NCBI GenBank assembly: GCA_031416315.1
Contig: JANOTL010000129.1
Location: 1-24,444, forward strand
Source of the DNA: Pseudomonadota bacterium
GTDB lineage: Bacteria; Bdellovibrionota_B; Oligoflexia; Oligoflexales; CAIYRB01
Direction: 5' to 3'
DNA: 24,444 nt
The notes beneath the pieces were generated by a model. It did not search any database and was not told where the DNA came from. It saw nothing but the letters and a program-made list of their open reading frames with translations. Below are positions 1-10,276 of the stretch, in pieces. Made by a program: the position numbers and the translations under genes. The stretch's first letter is position 1. Each line of letters starts with the position of its first letter.

Positions 1-35
1 GAACTCCGGTTCGTCATTCGACGGGACCGGAGTTC
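1..35. repeat. Inverted repeat / hairpin
   Basis: GAACTCCGGT (1-10) pairs perfectly with ACCGGAGTTC (26-35); inner CGTC/GACG stem with ATTC loop. Confidence 0.8.
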
Positions 36-105
36 GTGCAGTGTCAGGGGTGGTGGGGCGAGCCGGACACTGGGCGAACACTCCTCAACTTGCCGATTTT
101 ATTGA
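1..105 (+). CDS. Possible 3' end of a gene entering from the left (candidate large serine recombinase C-terminus), partial
   Basis: Frame 1 is open from base 1 to TGA at 103-105 (ELRFVIRRDRSSCSVRGGGASRTLGEHSSTCRFY*) and reads through the att-like site. Identity is inferred only from context (att site plus neighbouring recombinase-domain gene). Confidence 0.3.
   Translation, partial: ELRFVIRRDRSSCSVRGGGASRTLGEHSSTCRFY
32..79. mobile_element. attP-like recombination site with tRNA-Val 3'-end core
   Basis: Inverted arms GTTCGTGCAGTGTC (32-45) and GACACTGGGCGAAC (66-79) are 12/14 complementary and flank a 20-nt centre. The centre contains TGGTGGGG (51-58), identical to 10200-10207 (tRNA CCA end). 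The symmetry axis falls on GG 55-56. Confidence 0.7.
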
Positions 106-106
106 C

Positions 107-508
107 TTGCCATGCAAGTTCAACCTCATCCCCGACGCAGAGATTCTCCATCTCCGCGCGAACCAGAACCTCACAGCTGCCAAGATCTCCGACAGAACCG
201 GCGTCTCCAAAGCGCAGGTCTTGCGGCGCCTCCACCGGATGAATGTTCGTCGCGACGTCGGCACCGAGATCCGGCGCGGGCCGCAGCATGTCCCCTTCTG
301 CATTCGTCTTGTCGGCGGACGCCTCCGGGAGCATCGACAGGAAATTCGGGTCGCTCGACTGATCGTCGAGCTGCGACAGCGCCAAGACCTGGCGTGGGGA
401 GGCATCGTCCAGAAACTCAACGCGGCTGGCCTAAAGACTCGCGAGGGCAAGGAATGGGGTCTGACGACCGTGGCCCGGGTCTTCAAGCGTTGGAGTGGAA
501 AGTTGTGA
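107..508 (+). CDS. Small HTH + serine-recombinase 'Recombinase' (PF07508-like) DNA-binding domain protein, no catalytic resolvase domain
   Basis: HTH-like LTAAKISDRTGVSKAQVLRRL, then VPFC..VGGRL..H.QE..V..LI..LR...LAWGGIVQKLNAAGLKTREGKEW..TTVARV, which fits the recombinase-domain pattern. Start is uncertain: TTG 107 right after the frame-1 stop, or GTG 41/50/53. Confidence 0.75.
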   Translation: MPCKFNLIPDAEILHLRANQNLTAAKISDRTGVSKAQVLRRLHRMNVRRDVGTEIRRGPQHVPFCIRLVGGRLREHRQEIRVARLIVELRQRQDLAWGGIVQKLNAAGLKTREGKEWGLTTVARVFKRWSGKL

Positions 509-602
509 TCAACGCACCGCTGAATGTTGAACAGGGCGATACATCTCCAGTTGAGGAAGGATATTGGAGAGCTGCAACTGCTCGGGAAAACAATTTTTGG
601 CT

Positions 603-1295
603 TCACGGAGTCGGCGAGCACGCCATTCCAAGCGTCGCACCCTCGCGTCCAAACCCTGGCTCGGCCGGATACCCATTCGTCAAGGCGACACGTTCCGCGG
701 TCGTGAGCGACATGATCCCGCCCCGTCTGCTGTAGCTCATGATGGAGTCACGGTCTTCGTGCAGGTGGTGGTATCCGAGACAATGGATGATTTCGTGGGT
801 CAACGTCGCCCTGAAGCCAGCCGCCGACTTGACGGCGCCCGGCGAGAGCTTGATCGTGCAGCTCGTAATTTCTCCGTCGGCACTTTCGGGAGCCGCTACT
901 CCACCGACTCCGGACTTAAGATCGCTCCGGACGATGCGAATCGTGTGTGTCGCAGCGTAGCTCTCCGAAAAGATCATCTCTCCGGCGGCGGGCTGATCGA
1001 GGTCCGGAAACTGCCCAGGGTAGGTCTGAAGCCGAAGAAATGACGTCTGAACGCTGCGAAAATCGCCTAGAACCATCGCGACAACGGCCCCACGCCTCTC
1101 GCCCTCGGCAACGCCCTCGAGGGGCGTGGTGTCGTCCCAGAACGTCGTCGTATCGAAGCCTTCCGCGATAATTTCCGGATCAAAGTCGATCCAAACCGTC
1201 GGTTGCTGAGGCGAGACGTCCCAGCGCGCGCTGAATAGCGGACGAAATCCGAAGCTGAGGCCGGCGAATATCAAGATCACTGCGACTCTATACAC
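603..1295 (-). CDS. Exported metzincin (matrixin-like) zinc metalloprotease
   Basis: HEIIHCLGYHH = HExxHxxGxxH, Met-turn SIMSY, hydrophobic N-terminal signal, G-rich RBS before GTG. Confidence 0.85.
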   Translation of the reverse strand: MYRVAVILIFAGLSFGFRPLFSARWDVSPQQPTVWIDFDPEIIAEGFDTTTFWDDTTPLEGVAEGERRGAVVAMVLGDFRSVQTSFLRLQTYPGQFPDLDQPAAGEMIFSESYAATHTIRIVRSDLKSGVGGVAAPESADGEITSCTIKLSPGAVKSAAGFRATLTHEIIHCLGYHHLHEDRDSIMSYSRRGGIMSLTTAERVALTNGYPAEPGFGREGATLGMACSPTP

Positions 1296-1307
1296 CTCAC
1301 CCCCCTC

Positions 1308-1703
1308 TCACCATCCGACCGTAACTCCGGCAAGACCCATAGCCCTGGTTTCGCCGCTGCCTGCGCATGTTCCGAGGAACTCGAACGTCAGCCCAGCGAC
1401 GCGGATGAAGCGCCATTCGTAGCCGACGGTGCCGTACCACCCCAGATGCGGGTAAGGCATGCCGAGACCAAAACCGGCAAAAGTCGAACCCTTCCAAACG
1501 CGCGTCCCGCCATAAAGCCCGATACCCGGTGCCATGCCGAGGTCAAAGCTACCGAACGAAAGACGGTAGTTGGTCGGAAAGTACGCCTCGCCGATGCTTA
1601 CGGATGCGGAAAAGACGTTGTCTTTTCCAGCGTTCGCCACCGTTGGCATTCCGACGATGGCAATGCCGAATGCCGCAACCATCAGCCGCATGAGCGTCGT
1701 CAT
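1308..1703 (-). CDS. Small exported protein, probable outer-membrane beta-barrel
   Basis: Signal peptide (MTTLMRLMVAAFGIAIVGMPTVANA), Gly/aromatic alternating strands, C-terminal GVTVGW with terminal aromatic residue. ATG 1703 overlaps the upstream TGA (ATGA). Confidence 0.7.
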   Translation of the reverse strand: MTTLMRLMVAAFGIAIVGMPTVANAGKDNVFSASVSIGEAYFPTNYRLSFGSFDLGMAPGIGLYGGTRVWKGSTFAGFGLGMPYPHLGWYGTVGYEWRFIRVAGLTFEFLGTCAGSGETRAMGLAGVTVGW

Positions 1704-2218
1704 AGTTCGATTCCGATCGCCCCAAGGCCAGTCGCCGGCCACGCGCCGGCAAAGATGCCGACGTCGAGGCCCATGTTGTACTCGACGCCTATGTAAACCG
1801 GCCCGAGAGGCTTGAACGCGACACGGAAGCTCGGCCCGATCTGGGTGTCGACGTCGACCGCGAGGTCATACGGCTTTCCGTTCGCGTCGACCTGGGTGTA
1901 GACCCCCTTTCGCCCGTAGTATGCGCCAAATCCGATCGCGGTCTCGAGTCGACCGAACCAGAATTTACCCCAATCGACCGACCACATGCCGTTCAGCATG
2001 TATCCCGAGACGAAATAGGCTTGCGTCCGCGCGCCGGCCGTCATGCCGGAGATGACGAAGTCTTTAGAAAGGTTCGCGCCGACGTTGAGCGCGGGAAGCT
2101 TGCGGCCACTCGTCACCGTCGAATAGCCAACACCTGCATACCAAGCGGACGCAGGGCCGGCAGGCCCGACGAGCGTGGCCGCCCAGAGACTCGCACAGAC
2201 GAAAAGGATGCGTTGCAT
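1700..2218 (-). CDS. Small exported protein, probable outer-membrane beta-barrel
   Basis: Signal peptide ending ASA; amphipathic strands (WYAGVGYS, LNVGANL, IGPSFRVAF, VYIGVEYNMG, GAIGIEL). Confidence 0.7.
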   Translation of the reverse strand: MQRILFVCASLWAATLVGPAGPASAWYAGVGYSTVTSGRKLPALNVGANLSKDFVISGMTAGARTQAYFVSGYMLNGMWSVDWGKFWFGRLETAIGFGAYYGRKGVYTQVDANGKPYDLAVDVDTQIGPSFRVAFKPLGPVYIGVEYNMGLDVGIFAGAWPATGLGAIGIEL

Positions 2219-2251
2219 GCCATCCGGTTCGGTCGTCCACGGAGACTGCCT

Positions 2252-2270
2252 TACTTAAGTTGTCGTAAGT
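2252..2270. promoter_or_regulatory. Putative operator TACTTA-N5-TCGTAAGT (copy 2)
   Basis: 15/19 identical to 4446-4464; lies 34-52 nt upstream of the 2218 start and overlaps the regulator's stop codon. Confidence 0.5.
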
Positions 2271-2986
2271 TCGACCTGAAGGCAGTAGGTATCTTCTCCT
2301 ACGCGTTTGACGTCGTAGCCAGAAGCACGAAGCTTTTTCCGCAATCTGTGCAGATGCACATTGAACGTGTTGGTGCCGTAGCTGCCGCTTCCCCAAATTC
2401 GGCGAACGATCGTCGGCCGGTCGAGGGTTTGCGCCGGCGCTTGCGTTAGGAGCGTCACGATCTTGAGCTCTATCAAGGTCAGCTGAACATCGCGTTCGCC
2501 AATGCCATTCAATAGCGCGTTACCGAGTTCGAAGGGCTCGCACGCGGCAGTCTGCGTCTGATCGATGGGCATCAAGCTAGCGCGTAGGCGGACCAGCTCC
2601 TGCTCGTAGTAGCGCCGTTGCTCCAGAATGCGTAGAAAGTGCCTCGCCGCGGCCAAGAGATCCCCAACGGAGACCGGCTTGCGGAACACCGCCGAAGCGC
2701 CCTTGTCGAAGGCATCGGCAAGGATCGTATCCGAGAATCCCGTGACGACGAAAACGATCGGCACATCGGTCCCGGAGTCGGCGAGCCGAGTCAAGAGATC
2801 GACGCCTGTGCCATTCGGCATACGGACGTCGGTGATGATGAGATCCTGGCGATCCTCGGTCCAGAGATCAAACGCTGCGAAAGCACCTCCGGCGGTTTTG
2901 ACCCGACAGCCTTCGCGCTCGAGCTCGACGCCAACGTGCTTGACGAATGCGTCGTCGTCATCGACGAGAAGGACGCTCGGAGTCAT
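2255..2986 (-). CDS. Response regulator, REC + OmpR/PhoB-type winged helix
   Basis: VLLVDDD, IITDVRMP (phospho-Asp), VVTG, FRKP; C-terminal LTLIELKIV..L...IWG.....NTFNVHLHRLRKKL. ATG 2986 overlaps the kinase TGA; the ORF-track extension to 3184 is not used. Confidence 0.92.
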   Translation of the reverse strand: MTPSVLLVDDDDAFVKHVGVELEREGCRVKTAGGAFAAFDLWTEDRQDLIITDVRMPNGTGVDLLTRLADSGTDVPIVFVVTGFSDTILADAFDKGASAVFRKPVSVGDLLAAARHFLRILEQRRYYEQELVRLRASLMPIDQTQTAACEPFELGNALLNGIGERDVQLTLIELKIVTLLTQAPAQTLDRPTIVRRIWGSGSYGTNTFNVHLHRLRKKLRASGYDVKRVGEDTYCLQVELTTT

Positions 2987-4365
2987 GACTCTCCTCGCAA
3001 GAGCACGGCGATGTCTTCGATTTGGGTCGAGCTCGGAACGATATGGACCGGGCCACGAAACCCAAGCTCGCCGGCATGAACGGCGGCGAGCACCTCTTCG
3101 GCAAAGGCCTGGCCCGATATCGGGTAGGCGTTGGCATCGCACAAAACCATGGTCACGGGCGTAGTCGCGAGAATCTGCAAGCACTCACTAACCGTCGCAG
3201 CGAAAAGAACTCTCGTGTCAACATTGACCGCGGCGAGCTTAATCGTAGCCACTGTCGAGGCCCGGTCTGCCAAAACGAGCGCAGTCGCACCGTGCGAGCG
3301 CCCGGGCCTTGGCATTACCAAGCGAAAGCGCAAGCCGATGCCTGCCGCAGGCTCGCATGCGATGTCGATCTCGTTGGCATCAGCGAGCCGTTTCGCGATC
3401 GAAAGGCCCAGTCCCAACCCGCGGGCGTCGGGCGTATCGATCGTCGCAAAGGGGCGAAAGAGGTTTGCGGCAATTTCCGCGGGAAGGCCGGGTCCCGTGT
3501 CTCGAACTTCGATGACGACGCGACCGTCTTCAACGTCGACGCGGAGATCGATACGTTTTTCGTGCGACTTTTCGAGAGCCTCGACGGCGTTCTTGATCAG
3601 AACCAGGAGAATCTGCTGGAGGTGGTGCTCGTCGACGTGAGCAAAAGGCGCGCCTTCCGTCACGTGAACCTTCACAGTGACACCGCGAGTCTCAATGAAG
3701 CCTTCGAGCGTACGTAGGGCTTCCCCCACGGCAGCCGAGGCCGAAACCTCCGTGCGCCACGCTGTGCGATGCACGGCGTATTTATGCACGCCCCGACAGA
3801 CGAGATCCATGCTGCGAAGACCGGTCTTCGCGTTATTGAGACGCTGCCGTGCGGCGTCGGAGAGGATTGTCGCCGCGTCGCTTTCGAGCAAGGCCAGATT
3901 CGACGTCACCGACTGGATAGCTCCGTTGAGCTCGTGAGCAACGATCGATGAAATCTCGCCGAGAACCGCCATCTTCGAAGCCTGCAAGGTTGCTGCCTCG
4001 CGTCTCGTCTCTTCGGTGACGTCGATCGTATGGACGAGCGCGACAACTTCCGGCTCACGTCCGACGATGAAGGAACGCATCCAAAGCTCGCGGACCTCTC
4101 CTCCTTGGACGTGCATGCGCGTACGAAGCTCGGAATGGCCGTCTTCGTCTAAGCGAATGAGCGAGGCATTGAGGCGGTCGAGCTCGCCAGGGGGATAATA
4201 GCTTTCGATCGGCCGCTGTTCGTTGCCTTCCCCGTAACCCATCGCCCGCATCGCCGTCTCATTTTGAATGAGGACTTTGTTTTGGGTGAGTGAAAACAGG
4301 TTCACGATGTCGCGACTGTTCGAAAAGATCGTCGAGAAGTTATGGATCAAGTCGTCGAGCTTCAT
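2983..4365 (-). CDS. Soluble PAS sensor histidine kinase with degenerate C-terminal receiver-like domain
   Basis: N-terminal PAS-like region; H-box AHELNGAI, N-box LIKNAVEA, G1 DTGPG, F-box LFRPF, G2 GLGLGLSI; tail ...MVLCDANAYPISG resembles REC; no TM segment seen. Confidence 0.9.
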   Translation of the reverse strand: MKLDDLIHNFSTIFSNSRDIVNLFSLTQNKVLIQNETAMRAMGYGEGNEQRPIESYYPPGELDRLNASLIRLDEDGHSELRTRMHVQGGEVRELWMRSFIVGREPEVVALVHTIDVTEETRREAATLQASKMAVLGEISSIVAHELNGAIQSVTSNLALLESDAATILSDAARQRLNNAKTGLRSMDLVCRGVHKYAVHRTAWRTEVSASAAVGEALRTLEGFIETRGVTVKVHVTEGAPFAHVDEHHLQQILLVLIKNAVEALEKSHEKRIDLRVDVEDGRVVIEVRDTGPGLPAEIAANLFRPFATIDTPDARGLGLGLSIAKRLADANEIDIACEPAAGIGLRFRLVMPRPGRSHGATALVLADRASTVATIKLAAVNVDTRVLFAATVSECLQILATTPVTMVLCDANAYPISGQAFAEEVLAAVHAGELGFRGPVHIVPSSTQIEDIAVLLRGES

Positions 4366-4445
4366 TGGCCTATTCTAATCATGGAAGTGCTGGAAGCGAT
4401 GGAAGAATCAAACAGCTAATTTTGGCTACCAAGTCGTTAGGGGTA

Positions 4446-4465
4446 TACTTACGAACTCGTAAGTA
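4446..4465. promoter_or_regulatory. Perfect palindromic operator in divergent promoter region
   Basis: TACTTACGA-AC-TCGTAAGTA (9-bp arms) in the AT-rich 4366-4524 gap between the kinase and lipoprotein genes. Confidence 0.65.
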
Positions 4466-4524
4466 ATGGAAGTTTCTACACTCACCGATCGTCGCCTGGT
4501 CGTTCGACGAGGAGGGTGTTGGCC

Positions 4525-7500
4525 ATGCGTAGCGCATCAGCGTTTTTGGTAGCGGCTCGGCTGATGCTCTTTGGTCTGGTCGCGAGCGGATGCGAGGCTT
4601 CTTCGTCGAACAGTGGTCCTGCGCCGGCGACTGCGATCGGAACGCCAGATCCCGCTCCTGCGGGGACGAGCCCTGCCAATGGGCCAGGCCCGACGGATCC
4701 AAGTGGCGGCATAACTCCCGCGGCCCCTGATCCACAACAGTCGGGTTCGCCTTCGCCGGCACCGGAACCATCCGGCGAGACGGGCGGACCAGCGTCTCCC
4801 TCACCAGCGACCCCTTCAGGTCCGGCCGATCCGACCACGCCGTCGTCTGGTCCTACGCCGACCCCATCCCGAGCGCTACCTGATGCGCCAACAGCGGTGC
4901 TGACGGGAGTCCCGAGCATGAGCTCGAACGTGGCTGCTTTGTCCATAGTCGTCGCAGGCGAAGGCGTGACTCACTACCGCAGAAAGCTCGGCCCCGCATC
5001 GACGACGATTTGTGCCGATGAAATCGGATACGGCACCGAAACTGTCGTCGCGACGAAAGTTAGCGACTCGCTCGCGCCGTTCGATGACGGGCCAATACGC
5101 CTCTGCATCGTCGCTCGTGGCGCAAATACGACTTTTCAAGGGTTCGCGACTGCAACGGCCGCGACATGGGCGAATGACATGACGCCGCCGGCGGCACCCG
5201 CCACACTCAGCGCCACGTCTTCCGAAGCCAGCATTTCGCTGAGCTGGACGTCGTCTGCCGGTGCCGCCGGTTACGTCGTAGTGCGAACCACGAATCCGTC
5301 GCTCACCTTCGAACCCTCGCGCGGCGATGCCTACCTTTCGGGCAACGAACCTAAGATGGGCGAAAAGATAGTGTATGTGGGGCCAAACTCTAGCACGGTC
5401 GTAAACGGCCTTCAAAACGGCTCGAGCCACCGCTTTGCGGTCTATTCCTTCGACGACCTTTACAACTATTCGACGACCGCAAGCGAAGCCTCCGCGATCC
5501 CCGTGGGCCCGCTCGCAATCTGGCAAGCGTTCTCTGGATGGGGCGCCGGCGAGGTACGCGTCATGACCTCGGTGGGAACGACGCTCTACGTCGCCGGTGG
5601 CTTCAGCTTCCTAGGCCCCTTCACTGGTTCGGGTGTCATCGTCAACCGGGTGACCGGCGCATCCGCGCCGCCAACCGGAGTCAAGATCACGGGAGAAGTG
5701 CTTGCCGCCGTCGCGGACGGCAGCGGCGGCTGGTTCGTCGGCGGGGAGTTTTATGGGTTCGACTCGGTGCGCTATCTCCTCCACATCAAAAGCGATGGAT
5801 CCCTCGACACTTGGGATCCGGCACTCGACGGTAAGGTGCGGGCGATCGTGCGAAGCGGCAGCACTCTTTACGTCGGCGGCGAGTTTCGAAACGTCGGTGC
5901 AGTGACGCGGAACCGTGCCGCGGCAATCTCGACCACGACGGGGCTGGCTTCCAGCTGGCACCCGAACGTCGATAACACCGTAAACGCGCTGTCGATCAAC
6001 GGCTCGACGGTCTACCTCGGTGGATACTTCGCGTACGTCAATGGTATCGCTCGCAATTGCATCGCTGCGGTCACGACCTCGGGGACGTTGTCGACCTGGA
6101 ACCCCAACGCCAATCATATCGTCAACGCGTTGGCGATTGGTTCCGGAGTCGTCTATGCCGGCGGAAAATTCACGAGCATAGGGGGTCAGAGCCGCAAGAT
6201 CGTGGCGGCGATCGACGCGACGACGGGCACGGCGACGGCGTGGAACCCCGACTCGACGAGCTCGGCTCCTGAAGTGATGGCGCTCGCCATCGATGGTTCC
6301 ACGCTGTATGCGACCGGATATTTCGACAATATCGGTGGAGCAGCGCGCTCGAACCTCGCAGCTATCGATGTTTCGACCGGCTCGGCGACCGCTTGGAACC
6401 CCACGATCACCTCGACTGGCAAGGCCCTAGCCCTCACCAGTGACGACGTCCTCATCGGAGGCTACTTCTCGAAAACAGGAGCTCTCGATCGAAACAACGC
6501 GGCCGCCGTTGCCAAAGCCGACGGGACGGTTCGGAGCTGGGACCCGAGCTTTTCGTCGAACGTGAACGCCATTGCCGTCGACGGCGACGCCGTATTCGTC
6601 GGCGGGCGGTTCCTCAGCTCCGGGGGCCGACCGCGGCGCAACCTCGCCGCGATCGACCTTGCAACTGGAAAGGCTACTGACTGGAACCCTAAGTGCTACA
6701 AGGCTTCCGGCGAATCTATGCCGATCTGGAGTATGGTACGCGACGGCGCCACGATGTACGTCGCCGGAAACTTCGACAACTGCGGCGGCGCCGCGCGCTC
6801 GCACCTAGCTGCCATCGATCTCGCCACAGGGGCTGCACTGCCGCTGAACGTCGCGATCAATCAGCGTCTCTACAACGTCGCGAAGAGGGGAACGACCCTC
6901 TATCTCGGCGGCGATTTCACAACCGTCGGGGGCCAGACTCGCAATCATTTCGCTGCTATCGACACCGACGGCAACGTCCTGCCCTTGGATCCGAATCCGA
7001 ACGGCTCGACTGTTCGCGCCATCGCGGTCACAGATGACGCTATCTATCTCAGCGGGGACTTCACGACCGTCGCCGGTCAAAGCCGGCAACACCTCGCCGC
7101 GCTCAACTCGACGACGGGCGTGCTGAAGTCTTGGAACCCTGGGATGAACGGTGAGGCAGCACGCCTCCTAGTCGCGGGCGGTGACCTCTACGTCGCCGGC
7201 AGCTTTTCGACGATCGGCAGCGCGACGCGTAAAAATATCGCTCGTCTCAAACTGTCGGATGCAGCGTTGAGCGCCTGGGCTCCCGATCCGGATCAGCTCG
7301 TTTTTGATCTCGTTCCTTCGGGAGATCGAGTCTATTTCACCGGCGCCTTCACCAAGGTCGGCGCGACCGATCGAGGTGGCATCGCGGCCGTCGACGCCTT
7401 ACTGGGAGGTCTTCTGCCGTTCTCTGGCAACGGCTTCCAGGCCTCTGGAATCGCAGTCTCCGGGCTCGGTGTTTACGTGGGTGGCGCCTTCTTCGAGCTC

Positions 7501-7563
7501 GGAGGTAAATCCAACGTCTATGGTCTTGGCGTTCTTGGCATCAATTCTGGTTTACACCCTTGA
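4525..7563 (+). CDS. Large surface lipoprotein: Pro/Ser/Thr stalk, Ig-like + FN3-like domains, 14 beta-propeller blades
   Basis: RBS GGAGG 4511-4515, ATG 4525, lipobox ASGC, long P/S/T/G/A linker, FN3-like (PAAPATLSA..ISLSW..GYVV..GLQNGSSHRFAVYSFD), 14 repeats of about 48 aa (V.AL...G.TLYVGG.F..IGG..R..LAAID..TG....WNP). Confidence 0.88.
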   Translation: MRSASAFLVAARLMLFGLVASGCEASSSNSGPAPATAIGTPDPAPAGTSPANGPGPTDPSGGITPAAPDPQQSGSPSPAPEPSGETGGPASPSPATPSGPADPTTPSSGPTPTPSRALPDAPTAVLTGVPSMSSNVAALSIVVAGEGVTHYRRKLGPASTTICADEIGYGTETVVATKVSDSLAPFDDGPIRLCIVARGANTTFQGFATATAATWANDMTPPAAPATLSATSSEASISLSWTSSAGAAGYVVVRTTNPSLTFEPSRGDAYLSGNEPKMGEKIVYVGPNSSTVVNGLQNGSSHRFAVYSFDDLYNYSTTASEASAIPVGPLAIWQAFSGWGAGEVRVMTSVGTTLYVAGGFSFLGPFTGSGVIVNRVTGASAPPTGVKITGEVLAAVADGSGGWFVGGEFYGFDSVRYLLHIKSDGSLDTWDPALDGKVRAIVRSGSTLYVGGEFRNVGAVTRNRAAAISTTTGLASSWHPNVDNTVNALSINGSTVYLGGYFAYVNGIARNCIAAVTTSGTLSTWNPNANHIVNALAIGSGVVYAGGKFTSIGGQSRKIVAAIDATTGTATAWNPDSTSSAPEVMALAIDGSTLYATGYFDNIGGAARSNLAAIDVSTGSATAWNPTITSTGKALALTSDDVLIGGYFSKTGALDRNNAAAVAKADGTVRSWDPSFSSNVNAIAVDGDAVFVGGRFLSSGGRPRRNLAAIDLATGKATDWNPKCYKASGESMPIWSMVRDGATMYVAGNFDNCGGAARSHLAAIDLATGAALPLNVAINQRLYNVAKRGTTLYLGGDFTTVGGQTRNHFAAIDTDGNVLPLDPNPNGSTVRAIAVTDDAIYLSGDFTTVAGQSRQHLAALNSTTGVLKSWNPGMNGEAARLLVAGGDLYVAGSFSTIGSATRKNIARLKLSDAALSAWAPDPDQLVFDLVPSGDRVYFTGAFTKVGATDRGGIAAVDALLGGLLPFSGNGFQASGIAVSGLGVYVGGAFFELGGKSNVYGLGVLGINSGLHP

Positions 7564-7622
7564 GCGCAACACGCGAAGTTCAACCGATCCACGACCACTT
7601 TCGAACGACCGGGGCTGCCGCA

Positions 7623-9998
7623 ATGATGACCCACTTTTCTTCGCGCGTTCTTCTGATGACGGCGCTCGTACTTCAAGGCTGCAGCGGCGGCGGGGGCGGC
7701 GGCGCGACGAAGTCGTCGCCCGCGGTGACACCGCGATCGCCCGCGGCAATTCCCGCGGCAGCACCGCCACCAGCCGCGCCCGAAATCGGGGCGGTCGCAG
7801 TAAGTACTGAAGCGGGCTCGAAGGAGACGATTGACGCCCTAGAGGGCGTCGAAAGCGCACCTGATAAAGTTCCTGCGGGCACGCTTGGCAGCGTTGCTAT
7901 GGTCGGCGTCCTGGCGATCGGCATTGCTGAGCAAGAGGCAGTACTCGGCCTCGCATCCGAAGCTCAGCGGTTCTTGGCCCGATACGTCGAAACAGGCGAC
8001 TTGCAAGTCCTCGATATGGCGAAGCTCGGCTTCACGGCGGATTCACATGTCGATCGAATGATCGACGTCGGCAGCTATGGTTTCATCGTGCTCGGGGGAT
8101 TTGGCATTGCCAACGAAGGCAAAGACGATACCAAAGGGCAGGTCCTTTGGCTGAAACCGGACGGTTCGCTGCGCTTGTTCGACGGTGCATCTTTTGGATC
8201 ACCGGAGTCAAGAGTCGAGCAGATGCAGTTCACCAAGGACGGACGCTTGTGGCTTCGCTATCAAGCGACGTTCGACGGACGAGCGCTTGGGTACATCGAC
8301 TTGAAAACGGGTGAGTTCCATCAGCTGACCGACGACCAGCAGTCCATCGAATCCTTCGTCGCGACCGTTTCCGGAGATGTCTTCCTCTCGGGCCAAGTGC
8401 GCGCGACGAGCGCCAAATTCATCCGGAAAGTCAAAACTGACTCCAGCGGATTCGAGGTGTTGAGCAACATGCCGGAATTCGCCTTCGGCGACTCCGTATT
8501 TGCCCCGAGCAACTGGGAGGGAATCGGCGGTAGTCGCGGGACGACCGAAGTCATCGAAGTCGCCGGCGGCAAGATGCGCTTCAGCTATTTGCCGTCGATC
8601 CTCAACTGGCCGCGCCGCGCAGGACAAGACCGAGCAATCGAGCTCCCGCTCGTCGGCGACACCTGGCTCGTAACCCAGAGCGCCTCAGCATCGGGATCGC
8701 TCGTCGCGCTCGATATTGGAGCGAAAAAAATGCCGGGACCTCTGCTCGGCGCCGATGCCGTGCTAATCGACGAAGCACAAGGACTTGTCTTCGACGGCGC
8801 GAACGTACTTCAGATCATCCTCGACGGCGCCAAGCTGAAGATCGTGACCCACCGCAGGCTCATTTCCGACAAGGCGAACGGGTACCGGGTCCTGAGGTTG
8901 TTCGGACCGAAGCAGGGCTATACCACCAAATGGCGTGCCGTCATTCAACGCTCAGGAGCGTTCTCGGGGTACTGGTTCGCCGACGTCGATCCGGAAACCG
9001 GATTGATCGACGTTGATCATCGCACCAAGCTCGTTTCGGGGAACGGGGAGCTCTTCGGTCGCTTTCCCGAGCTCGTTCGCAAGGTCGGAAGTCGCTCGTT
9101 TCTCGTCTACTATGGGGAAATCTACCAGTTCTCCGAGCCCGCCGCGAACGATCCGGAGGTCACCCTGACCGAAGCGACGGGCATGCAGACTCATTCGCTT
9201 CGGATCCATCACGGTCTTCTTCGCAACGGCGTCATGTACCTGCCGGAAGGCGACTCCATCAATGCTTATGACACGGCGTCAGGTACAGTCACGAACGTGG
9301 ACCGCTTCGATCAAGCTCCCAACTGCTACCGAATCATGCGCCTTTTCGAAGTCGGCGGCGCTACGAAGAAACCCGCCGCGCTCGCCAAACGGTGGAGCGG
9401 CGAGTGCGGCAACACGGCCGACAAGCTGTACGTCCTCGAGTTCGGCGATTGGAGCGGCGGCTTGACGACAACGAACTTAGTTGCCGCTCATGAGCTCGGT
9501 GAAACGCCGCGTTATACAGACTACGCCATCTTCGCAGACAAAAATGGCGCGCGCTTCTTGGCGCCCAGTGACGCATCGCCTCTTCTTTTGCTAACTCCGG
9601 ACTCGTTTTCCGTTAGCGGTCAGATCGTTTCCAGCCAGGGTATTGCGTCTGATGAAACCGTCTATTTCGCGAAGCAGTTTCCTTACAGCGACATCGAAAT
9701 GGTCGCCGCCTGGGGCAACGATCGGGTCCTTACGGCCGGACTGATCGACAACGAGTACCGAGTCCAGCGCACGAGTCTTGTCCAACGCACCTCGGAATTC
9801 CTTGCCGACCTCGATGGAGTGCAAGTCTACTTCGCCAAGACGATTGGAAGTCGTGTGTTCGTTAACGGCCACAGAGTTGCGACCAATGAGCGCGTTACTC
9901 GGACGTACGACTTGGCGGGGACCTTACTTTCCGAGCAAACGGCATCAGCATTCAAGATTCTTTCATTGAATCCAGTCATGAGCCAAAAGGCCGAGTGA
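7623..9998 (+). CDS. Large lipoprotein of unknown function, beta-rich (possible propellers)
   Basis: MMTHFSSRVLLMTALVLQGC lipobox followed by poly-Gly and Pro/Ala linker; long open frame. Start refined from TTG 7560 to ATG 7623. Confidence 0.78.
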   Translation: MMTHFSSRVLLMTALVLQGCSGGGGGGATKSSPAVTPRSPAAIPAAAPPPAAPEIGAVAVSTEAGSKETIDALEGVESAPDKVPAGTLGSVAMVGVLAIGIAEQEAVLGLASEAQRFLARYVETGDLQVLDMAKLGFTADSHVDRMIDVGSYGFIVLGGFGIANEGKDDTKGQVLWLKPDGSLRLFDGASFGSPESRVEQMQFTKDGRLWLRYQATFDGRALGYIDLKTGEFHQLTDDQQSIESFVATVSGDVFLSGQVRATSAKFIRKVKTDSSGFEVLSNMPEFAFGDSVFAPSNWEGIGGSRGTTEVIEVAGGKMRFSYLPSILNWPRRAGQDRAIELPLVGDTWLVTQSASASGSLVALDIGAKKMPGPLLGADAVLIDEAQGLVFDGANVLQIILDGAKLKIVTHRRLISDKANGYRVLRLFGPKQGYTTKWRAVIQRSGAFSGYWFADVDPETGLIDVDHRTKLVSGNGELFGRFPELVRKVGSRSFLVYYGEIYQFSEPAANDPEVTLTEATGMQTHSLRIHHGLLRNGVMYLPEGDSINAYDTASGTVTNVDRFDQAPNCYRIMRLFEVGGATKKPAALAKRWSGECGNTADKLYVLEFGDWSGGLTTTNLVAAHELGETPRYTDYAIFADKNGARFLAPSDASPLLLLTPDSFSVSGQIVSSQGIASDETVYFAKQFPYSDIEMVAAWGNDRVLTAGLIDNEYRVQRTSLVQRTSEFLADLDGVQVYFAKTIGSRVFVNGHRVATNERVTRTYDLAGTLLSEQTASAFKILSLNPVMSQKAE

Positions 9999-10107
9999 TC
10001 AAGGGATCAAATCGCCCGATCGAGCTTTTGCCGATTGCGCCGAGCCCGACGAATCAGCCGTGGGAGCTACGAAGCGCGCGCAGGCTACCGATGCTAGCCC
10101 GACGAAG

Positions 10108-10162
10108 TGGGGATGAAGTCTCAACCCCAACACTGGGCGAACAACTTGCAACTTGTGGATTT
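10108..10162. repeat. Second att-like site: palindrome plus direct repeat of 67-99
   Basis: TGGGG-A-TGA-AGTC-TCA-A-CCCCA palindrome (10108-10129) followed by ACACTGGGCGAACA-N5-CAACTTG-N2-GATTT (10130-10162), 26/33 identical to 67-99. Confidence 0.75.
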
Positions 10163-10199
10163 CACTCAGGCAAGCACATCAGATGTTCGCGCGAGGAGA

Positions 10200-10276
10200 T
10201 GGTGGGGATACACAGACTCGAACTGTGGACCTCTGCTGTGTGAAAGCAGCGCTCTAACCAACTGAGCTATATCCCC
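10200..10276 (-). tRNA. tRNA-Val (anticodon CAC), encoded CCA
   Basis: Minus strand GGGGATATAGCTCAGTTGGTTAGAGCGCTGCTTTCACACAGCAGAGGTCCACAGTTCGAGTCTGTGTATCCCCACCA: 7-bp acceptor stem, D-arm, CTGCT/AGCAG anticodon stem with TT-CAC-AC loop, GTTCGAG T-loop. Confidence 0.97.

Follow-up and report, generated by a model that had tools for sequence, protein, structure and literature searches.

A P × P' attachment joint at a tRNA-Val gene in a Bdellovibrionota genome, probably a relic of tandem serine-integrase elements

Why would two attachment sites of a large serine recombinase (LSR), both apparently unrecombined, stand in direct orientation and only 10 kb apart in a bacterial genome? The question is raised by contig JANOTL010000129.1 (C129) of assembly GCA_031416315.1, from a bacterium placed by GTDB in Bdellovibrionota_B, of which positions 1 to 24,444, called here the window, were analysed. 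An earlier note on this DNA had described an attP-like site at 32-79 (site 1) and an attB-like site at the 3' end of a tRNA-Val gene (site 2), and had proposed that an integrase alone could remove the 10.1-kb block between them as a one-way switch or, alternatively, that the locus is a junction in a tandem array of islands. The second proposal is the one best supported here. We put at roughly three in four the probability that site 1 is a P × P' joint left by the tandem accretion of LSR elements at the tRNA-Val 3' end, in an array that is now a decayed relic without an integrase of its own.

The assembly comprises 6.36 Mb in 226 contigs and is 93.3% complete. The left edge of the window coincides with the contig end, so that the sequence left of base 1 is unreadable; the Logan contig likewise begins at base 1, and no overlap was found between the window start and any other contig of the assembly. 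The checks for recombination joints and for an LSR gene were made on the contigs of one public run (X1) that contains the window DNA and may be its source.

Site 1 and the frame that crosses it

Every coordinate of the earlier note was checked and is correct. The core TGGTGGGG stands at 51-58 in site 1 and at 10200-10207 in the tRNA-Val end, and a GAC follows at 66-68 and 10215-10217, respectively. The CGAAC motif lies 16 nt after the core in site 1 but 11 nt after it on the tRNA side, and the left GTTCG precedes the core by 19 nt in site 1 and by 15 nt in site 2. A genome-wide search for GTTCG-N8-16-TGGTGGGG-N8-18-CGAAC, for which the earlier note had called, returned only these two places. 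The arms of site 1 (32-45 and 66-79) are complementary in 12 of 14 positions, a symmetry that chance alone could produce: with the spacer of site 1, 12/14 is attained at 152 of 6,354,156 genome positions, or about 0.6 per 24 kb.

It is homology at the sequence level, and not arm symmetry, that establishes site 1 as real. Positions 1-50 of the window are identical at 38 of 50 nt to the end of an intact 652-residue LSR frame in a genome of the same family (G029:C641, L140), at 36 of 50 to L142, and at 44 of 50 to a remnant in G028. On a matrix built from 15 P arms of LSRs read in frame 1 (leave-one-out range 6.9-25.7 bits), the left arm obtains a score (Table 1; 13.0 bits without its closest relative) that none of 200,000 random 19-mers reaches, and it is the genome's sole match of at least 10 bits before TGGT[GC]G. 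The left arm consists of the 3' coding sequence of an LSR, and the right arm starts a tail module in the same frame. The frame concerned is 2-508, and not one ending at 105 as the earlier note had expected; its 168 codons run through site 1 and encode a helix-turn-helix (HTH) and a Recombinase domain (RD) without a catalytic domain. The LSR codons belong to an element left of the contig end, and the module appears to be the split-off 3' part of an integrase gene. With LSR-end homology on its left and the module on its right, site 1 is a true non-hybrid P × P' site, as the earlier note had held, and the attribution to a serine-integrase system stands as well. The centre at GG 55-56 is supported by arm symmetry and by L153/L154, in which the P × B and P × P' joints of one element diverge directly after TGGTGG.

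The profile of the module family matches the RD of A118 integrase (E 4e-4), and four close pairs of modules show purifying selection (dN 0.07-0.33 vs dS 1.1-1.4). Homologues were found by a single query in 22 of 95 genomes of the order and by profile in 34 of 104 genomes of the phylum that are at least 85% complete. Against 1.84 billion representatives the profile gave 120 matches at 1e-10, many of them about 155 residues long, and the named relatives are Bdellovibrionota; a word-index search with the module gave no match. Contig C125 (G000:C125) carries a paralogous arm and module, beginning with the same kind of arm. The complete genomes G046 and G045 have 17 and nine module matches, respectively, from which 20 stretches, a part of the total, were fetched. 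The tandem modules of G046 lie behind tRNA-Ala (two), tRNA-Met (three), tmRNA (three), tRNA-Pro (two, plus an LSR) and tRNA-Val (one), all pointing at the tRNA from the opposite strand. Along G046:C1 and G045:C1 (L097-L112) many modules stand in tandem arrays, one intact LSR being found in G046, which makes these arrays a good system for following array growth.

Table 1. Features of the window (positions in the window; strand; evidence)
Feature	Position	Strand	Evidence
GC-rich hairpin in the LSR 3' coding tail	1..35	-	fold -21.4 kcal/mol
Last 16 LSR codons before the att core (NSG...TGVRAVSGV)	2..50	+	homology to L140, L142 and the G028 remnant
P half-site with GTTCG at -19 and TGTC at -9	32..55	+	matrix score 15.6 bits
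HTH + RD module, in frame with the LSR tail	50..508	+	PF07508 (E 2.6e-4) and HTH matches
Core common to site 1 and the tRNA 3' end	51..58	+	crossover probably at GG 55-56
P' half-site: CGAAC shifted outward by 5 bp relative to the tRNA T-arm	56..79	+	family module loci
SprT-like protein, two small unknown proteins, response regulator, histidine kinase	603..4365	-	Pfam
1015-aa beta-propeller repeat protein (DUF5122) and 812-aa unknown protein	4516..9998	+	
Degenerate second P' arm and module-start stub (HWANNLQLVDF)	10107..10162	+	14-bp exact, 26/33 match to 67-99
Flank adjoining the tRNA, GTTCG at -15	10185..10199	+	not a family P arm
Intact tRNA-Val(CAC)	10200..10276	-	ARAGORN

Integrase genes and arm geometry in the relatives

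The origin of the module is indicated by relatives in which the two parts are still joined. In P0099 and P0027 the module is fused behind LSR-type sequence ending in VRxxxxLV, the motif that the window reads directly before the core, and L110 is a further in-frame fusion. P0151 is a whole LSR that ends in tRNA-Met antisense codons; it is 98% identical to P0099, which is fused to the module and lies 30 kb away on the same contig. The LSR of G029 ends at tRNA-Ala. Because of these fusions and the G029 end, the left arm of site 1 is read as a P arm inside an integrase gene and frame 2-508 as integrase tail plus module. L140 and P0151 carry Resolvase, Recombinase and zinc-ribbon (ZD) domains, and the best NCBIfam match of the family is CcrB (156 bits, far below the cut-off of 900). 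In both single elements with both ends visible (G005 and G006, among 37 stretches), module and LSR are read in the same frame, in two further registers. These features place attP inside the serine integrase gene of this family, the gene being split on integration into a tRNA gene. The related LSRs are found at the 3' ends of tRNA genes, where their P arm exceeds the T-arm half by 5 bp, and their targets are tRNA-Val, Pro, Ala, Met, Arg and tmRNA, tRNA-Val being represented by L155, L162 and, by its P arm, G092:C20.

The geometry of the arms is shared by the family. Of 18 distinct LSR × tRNA junctions (those with a profile score of at least 700 plus two partial genes; one further gene has no junction in its contig), 15 have a GTTCG that begins 19 nt ahead of the core. 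Since the 15 span two reading frames and include all three junctions read in the other frame, GTTCG is a DNA motif and not a codon effect. On the opposite side, the CGAAC-type motif is found at +19 in the tRNA T-arm (YGAAY) and at +24 in P' arms, the core with CGAAC at +24 being recognised in 21 of 60 module loci. Measured from the centre GG, the motif distances are 23.5 and 23.5 (P and P') and 18.5 (tRNA). The 5-bp shift between P-type and B-type arms, noticed earlier in the window, therefore holds across the family, and the shifted distal motif is presumably the ZD site. A scan of 131 genomes for the junction pattern gave 92 matches, 52 of which were read by eye as tRNA or tmRNA ends; in these, GTTCG is at -19 in 24, at -14 in three and at -15 in the window only, while the offsets in the other 40 are evenly spread. 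Among the 21 module junctions with a recognisable arm (60 examined), the left arm is P-type at -19 in five and at -20 in one, and GTTCG occurs at -14/-15 in none, so that the B' arm seems unconstrained.

Site 2 has to be seen in the light of these numbers. The acceptor 3' strand and T-arm of the tRNA-Val (10205-10223) constitute the B half-site. With B' seemingly unconstrained, the GTTCG at 10185 hardly points to a special attB, and the B-B' site proposed in the earlier note is not supported: the -15 spacing departs from symmetry by 1 bp, shows no enrichment in the family (one of 52 tRNA-like junctions, none of 21 module junctions), and the flank 10185-10199 scores -19.8 on the P-arm matrix, which 38% of random 19-mers reach. 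Site 2 is best read as the end of an ordinary tRNA gene that lacks a P arm. In G092, this tRNA-Val(CAC) end carries a proper P arm, much like that of site 1; the normal family junction at this tRNA is thus known, and it is missing from the window. The idea of a conserved host B' arm was rejected, the tRNA-Val(CAC) flanks of same-family genomes having no GTTCG at -15. The GTTCGCG-N8 of site 2 does recur, however, before a 17-bp tRNA-Val fragment at G000:C125:6296-6327. At 10130-10162, 37 bp from the tRNA, stands a degenerate copy of the right arm, and the stub to which it belongs (Table 1) would mark a second, collapsed cassette.

Two minor observations concern these ends. Within 10097-10215 the stub frame stays open through the flank into tRNA antisense codons, and 10107-10126 resembles a worn tRNA-Val fragment. 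At G000:C26:36772-36813 a tRNA-Val(TAC) flank has GTTCG at -18 and VRP-like codons, possibly another P-arm remnant.

Tandem accretion and its alternatives

The P × P' pattern was found at 26 loci, 12 of them at exact spacing in seven genomes, and the module stands behind six of these 12. Joints of this kind are ordinary in the tandem tRNA arrays of the LSR family, as tandem accretion predicts (PMC5704250; PMC3146451). Because attP is inside the integrase gene, such a joint places the last integrase codons in frame with the HTH and RD tail. At the locus studied here, a first element would have sat at the tRNA as P × tRNA; a second, inserted at the same tRNA end, would have pushed the P arm of the first outward, giving P × P'; a third would have done likewise, leaving the stub at 10107-10162; and later deletions would have removed the integrase genes and the tRNA-side P arm. 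The block has neither an LSR nor a P arm at its tRNA end. We infer this order of events, as well as the role of the tail.

Several points weigh against this account. Nothing left of base 1 is assembled, and an intact LSR could lie there. A control with the reversed pattern gave almost as many rows (24 vs 27), so that only the pile-up at one spacing is informative. In 39 of the 60 module loci the arms are too divergent for the motif used. We infer the right boundary of the block, because there is no P arm at its tRNA end; its deletion history and the link of the C125 array with the window locus are likewise reconstructions. A second LSR clade, ending in WW, is out of frame with the neighbouring modules in G021, G045 and G046. 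Finally, no intact protein with resolvase, RD, ZD and module was found, the fusions seen being damaged or N-terminally cut, and a search for longer fused forms was empty, though by the tool's own statement it is a weak search. L034, of the WW clade and the first LSR found beside a module, was discarded as out of frame and not of the cognate clade.

In the family at large, the full integrase (about 750 residues) would be encoded only by the excised circle, and the inserted copy would encode a tail-less enzyme ending in tRNA antisense codons. Since the two forms would differ, integration itself would change the enzyme and would likely bias the direction of the reaction. A wider proposal, which we make tentatively and hold to be somewhat less likely than not, is that a widespread Bdellovibrionota family of serine integrases reads the conserved T-arm of many tRNAs as a one-sided attB and keeps the control of directionality inside its own gene, the circle encoding a four-domain-plus-tail enzyme and the inserted copy a tail-less one; tandem insertion would then create chromosomal attP sites like site 1, which a visiting integrase of the family could collapse against the tRNA. 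Such a collapse, if true, would explain that intact integrase genes are not seen before P × P' joints.

All in-frame fusions seen are damaged or cut off, and among the P × P' loci (L325-L349) no exact joint was seen with an intact integrase gene before it. Breakage of the integrase may be what allows such joints to be stable.

If an intact LSR lay just left of the contig end, a full fused integrase would stand beside a live attP and could delete the 10.1-kb block in one direction. This is unlikely, even though frame 2 has no stop from base 2 onward and starts with LSR tail codons, the cores are compatible, B' appears unconstrained, attP × attB recombination needs no directionality factor (PMC3783163), and the assembly is, at 93.3% completeness, divided into 226 contigs. 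No LSR was found in this assembly, in which four LSR queries added nothing and the window starts at a contig end; the zinc-ribbon domain gave no match there either, and what the assembly does hold is one resolvase of 214 residues and two RD matches, which are the modules. No X1 contig covers the nearest LSR gene at 80% or more, a weak negative, and the L140 integrase gene has scattered short cover only. The joints expected from deletion (55/10205) and from a circle (10204/56), for which the earlier note had proposed to look, are absent from the X1 contigs, again a weak negative because contigs drop rare variants. Moreover, an LSR match just upstream (about 0.4-1.5 kb visible) is absent from all 11 other exact P × P' loci, in the closest homologue (G028) the arm is preceded by 33 open codons, and a loss that is irreversible would not persist as a switch beside decayed stubs. 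With no such integrase found in the assembly, the locus is probably a relic rather than a deletion switch in working order; the switch of the earlier note is not supported by any joint in X1 either, relatives commonly hold P × P' joints as relics, and there is no sign of a programmed switch. If an integrase were provided in trans, deletion of 56-10204 would in principle still be possible.

The tandem-accretion account has also to be weighed against the idea that the module is a separate small gene starting at the att core, encoding a trans-acting directionality factor or repressor, and that the fusions are incidental. The start codon on which this depends (ATG or GTG) does overlap the core, but it comes from the other half-site and varies (CTG in L009, TAG in L008), and one subfamily reads NG or WL across the core without a start there. 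Gene callers do annotate stand-alone proteins of about 155 residues, a ribosome-binding-like AGGAGG precedes the module at C125, and out-of-frame neighbours exist; nonetheless, the module frame matches that of the cognate LSR in three different registers, and we regard a separate gene as improbable.

That both sites resemble a tRNA 3' end by chance, or are the ends of a tyrosine-integrase island, is very improbable. Arm symmetry taken alone does not exceed chance, 11 tyrosine-recombinase matches were found in the genome, tyrosine-island remains occur on C125 and the flank 10185-10199 may stem from such an island; yet site 1 matches LSR ends over 50 nt, outscores the 200,000 random 19-mers and shares only 8 bp with the tRNA (vs 17 bp at the tyrosine-type repeat on C125), and for site 1 the LSR homology refutes the idea.

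Related systems and neighbouring features

The closest known systems, compared here through excerpts of the cited papers, are the ssrA islands of Dehalococcoides, the SSV1-type integrases and the integrase of myxophage Mx8; the locus works like them and stands apart in its target or in its enzyme class. Like the Dehalococcoides islands, the family combines a CcrB-like LSR at a tDNA 3' end, tandem islands many of which lack an integrase, and an integrase gene whose 3' end overlaps the att site (McMurdie 2011, PMC3146451). The same paper suggests that the integrase DsiB is complete only on the circle or beside an adjacent island, and thereby anticipates the idea. However, those islands are ssrA-specific, whereas the window target is tRNA-Val and the LSR family uses many tRNAs and tmRNA; genes of their six-gene module with DsiA are not present in the block, and the excerpt describes no HTH and RD tail (PMC3146451). 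As in the 'suicidal' integrases of SSV1, pTN3 and pT26-2, attP is inside the integrase gene, which is partitioned on integration (PMC8371274). Those enzymes are tyrosine recombinases, said to be exclusively archaeal (PMC8371274), while here the recombinase is bacterial and of the serine type, and its catalytic domain, RD and ZD stay together, an extra DNA-binding tail being cut off. In Mx8, attP also lies in the int coding sequence, and integration gives int a new 3' end that changes its activity without killing it (PMC6070905). Unlike that phage enzyme, the integrases considered here have a second recombinase domain. The Mx8 integrase belongs to the tyrosine class.

With regard to the sites, the distal motif of B-type halves lies closer to the centre than that of P-type halves by 5 bp, and the sites measure about 48 and 38 bp, as for LI/A118 integrase (Rutherford 2013, PMC3783163); LI has the motif in both attB halves, whereas here only the tRNA half carries it. 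The block also resembles cis-mobilizable elements (CIMEs) and the products of tandem accretion, which are decayed elements without an integrase, stacked at the 3' end of a tRNA gene, whose internal att sites are chimeric (PMC5704250). Its integrase and transfer genes are gone. The example worked through in that review concerns tyrosine integrases (PMC5704250). Unlike a CIME, which keeps both ends, the block keeps the P' end and has lost the P end, no P arm being left at the tRNA. No published description of a serine integrase losing an HTH and RD tail was found in the open-access literature.

The locus itself is probably a relic, and the point of interest is the design of the LSR family, in which the serine integrase carries the attP that splits it. 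For serine integrases a separate directionality factor is normally required. Self-splitting integrase genes have been described for archaeal tyrosine enzymes and for Mx8; a serine integrase that loses an HTH and a second RD on insertion would permit a direct test of built-in directionality control. In addition, an enzyme that needs only the T-arm half of a tRNA could insert cargo at native tRNA genes of many hosts without a landing pad.

As regards the remaining features, the hairpin at the window start is likely a terminator for tRNA read-through, whose T-run would fall beyond the contig end; similar hairpins are found in the LSR ends of L140, L142 and L338, and in the homologue of G028 a T-run follows on the tRNA strand. 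Promoter and terminator scans gave matches at shuffle level. The GC content of the block (56-10199) is 0.602, compared with 0.658 right of the tRNA. The region G000:C125:782-6460 (L004 covers 1-3443), probably part of the same mixed array, contains a 3' fragment of a tyrosine integrase, direct repeats of TGGTCGCA at 1404 and 6446, the second module (1476-1946), an AbiEi-like gene with a neighbour that we take to be AbiEii-like, and a 17-bp tRNA-Val(CAC) 3' fragment at 6311. A broken third copy of the module is found at G000:C95:34711-34901, about 10 kb from tRNA-SeC and its tyrosine integrase. In the cargo, the 1015-residue protein (4516-7563) has a Pro/Ser-rich linker, and its beta-propeller repeats of about 48 residues correspond to DNA repeats of 141-144 bp.

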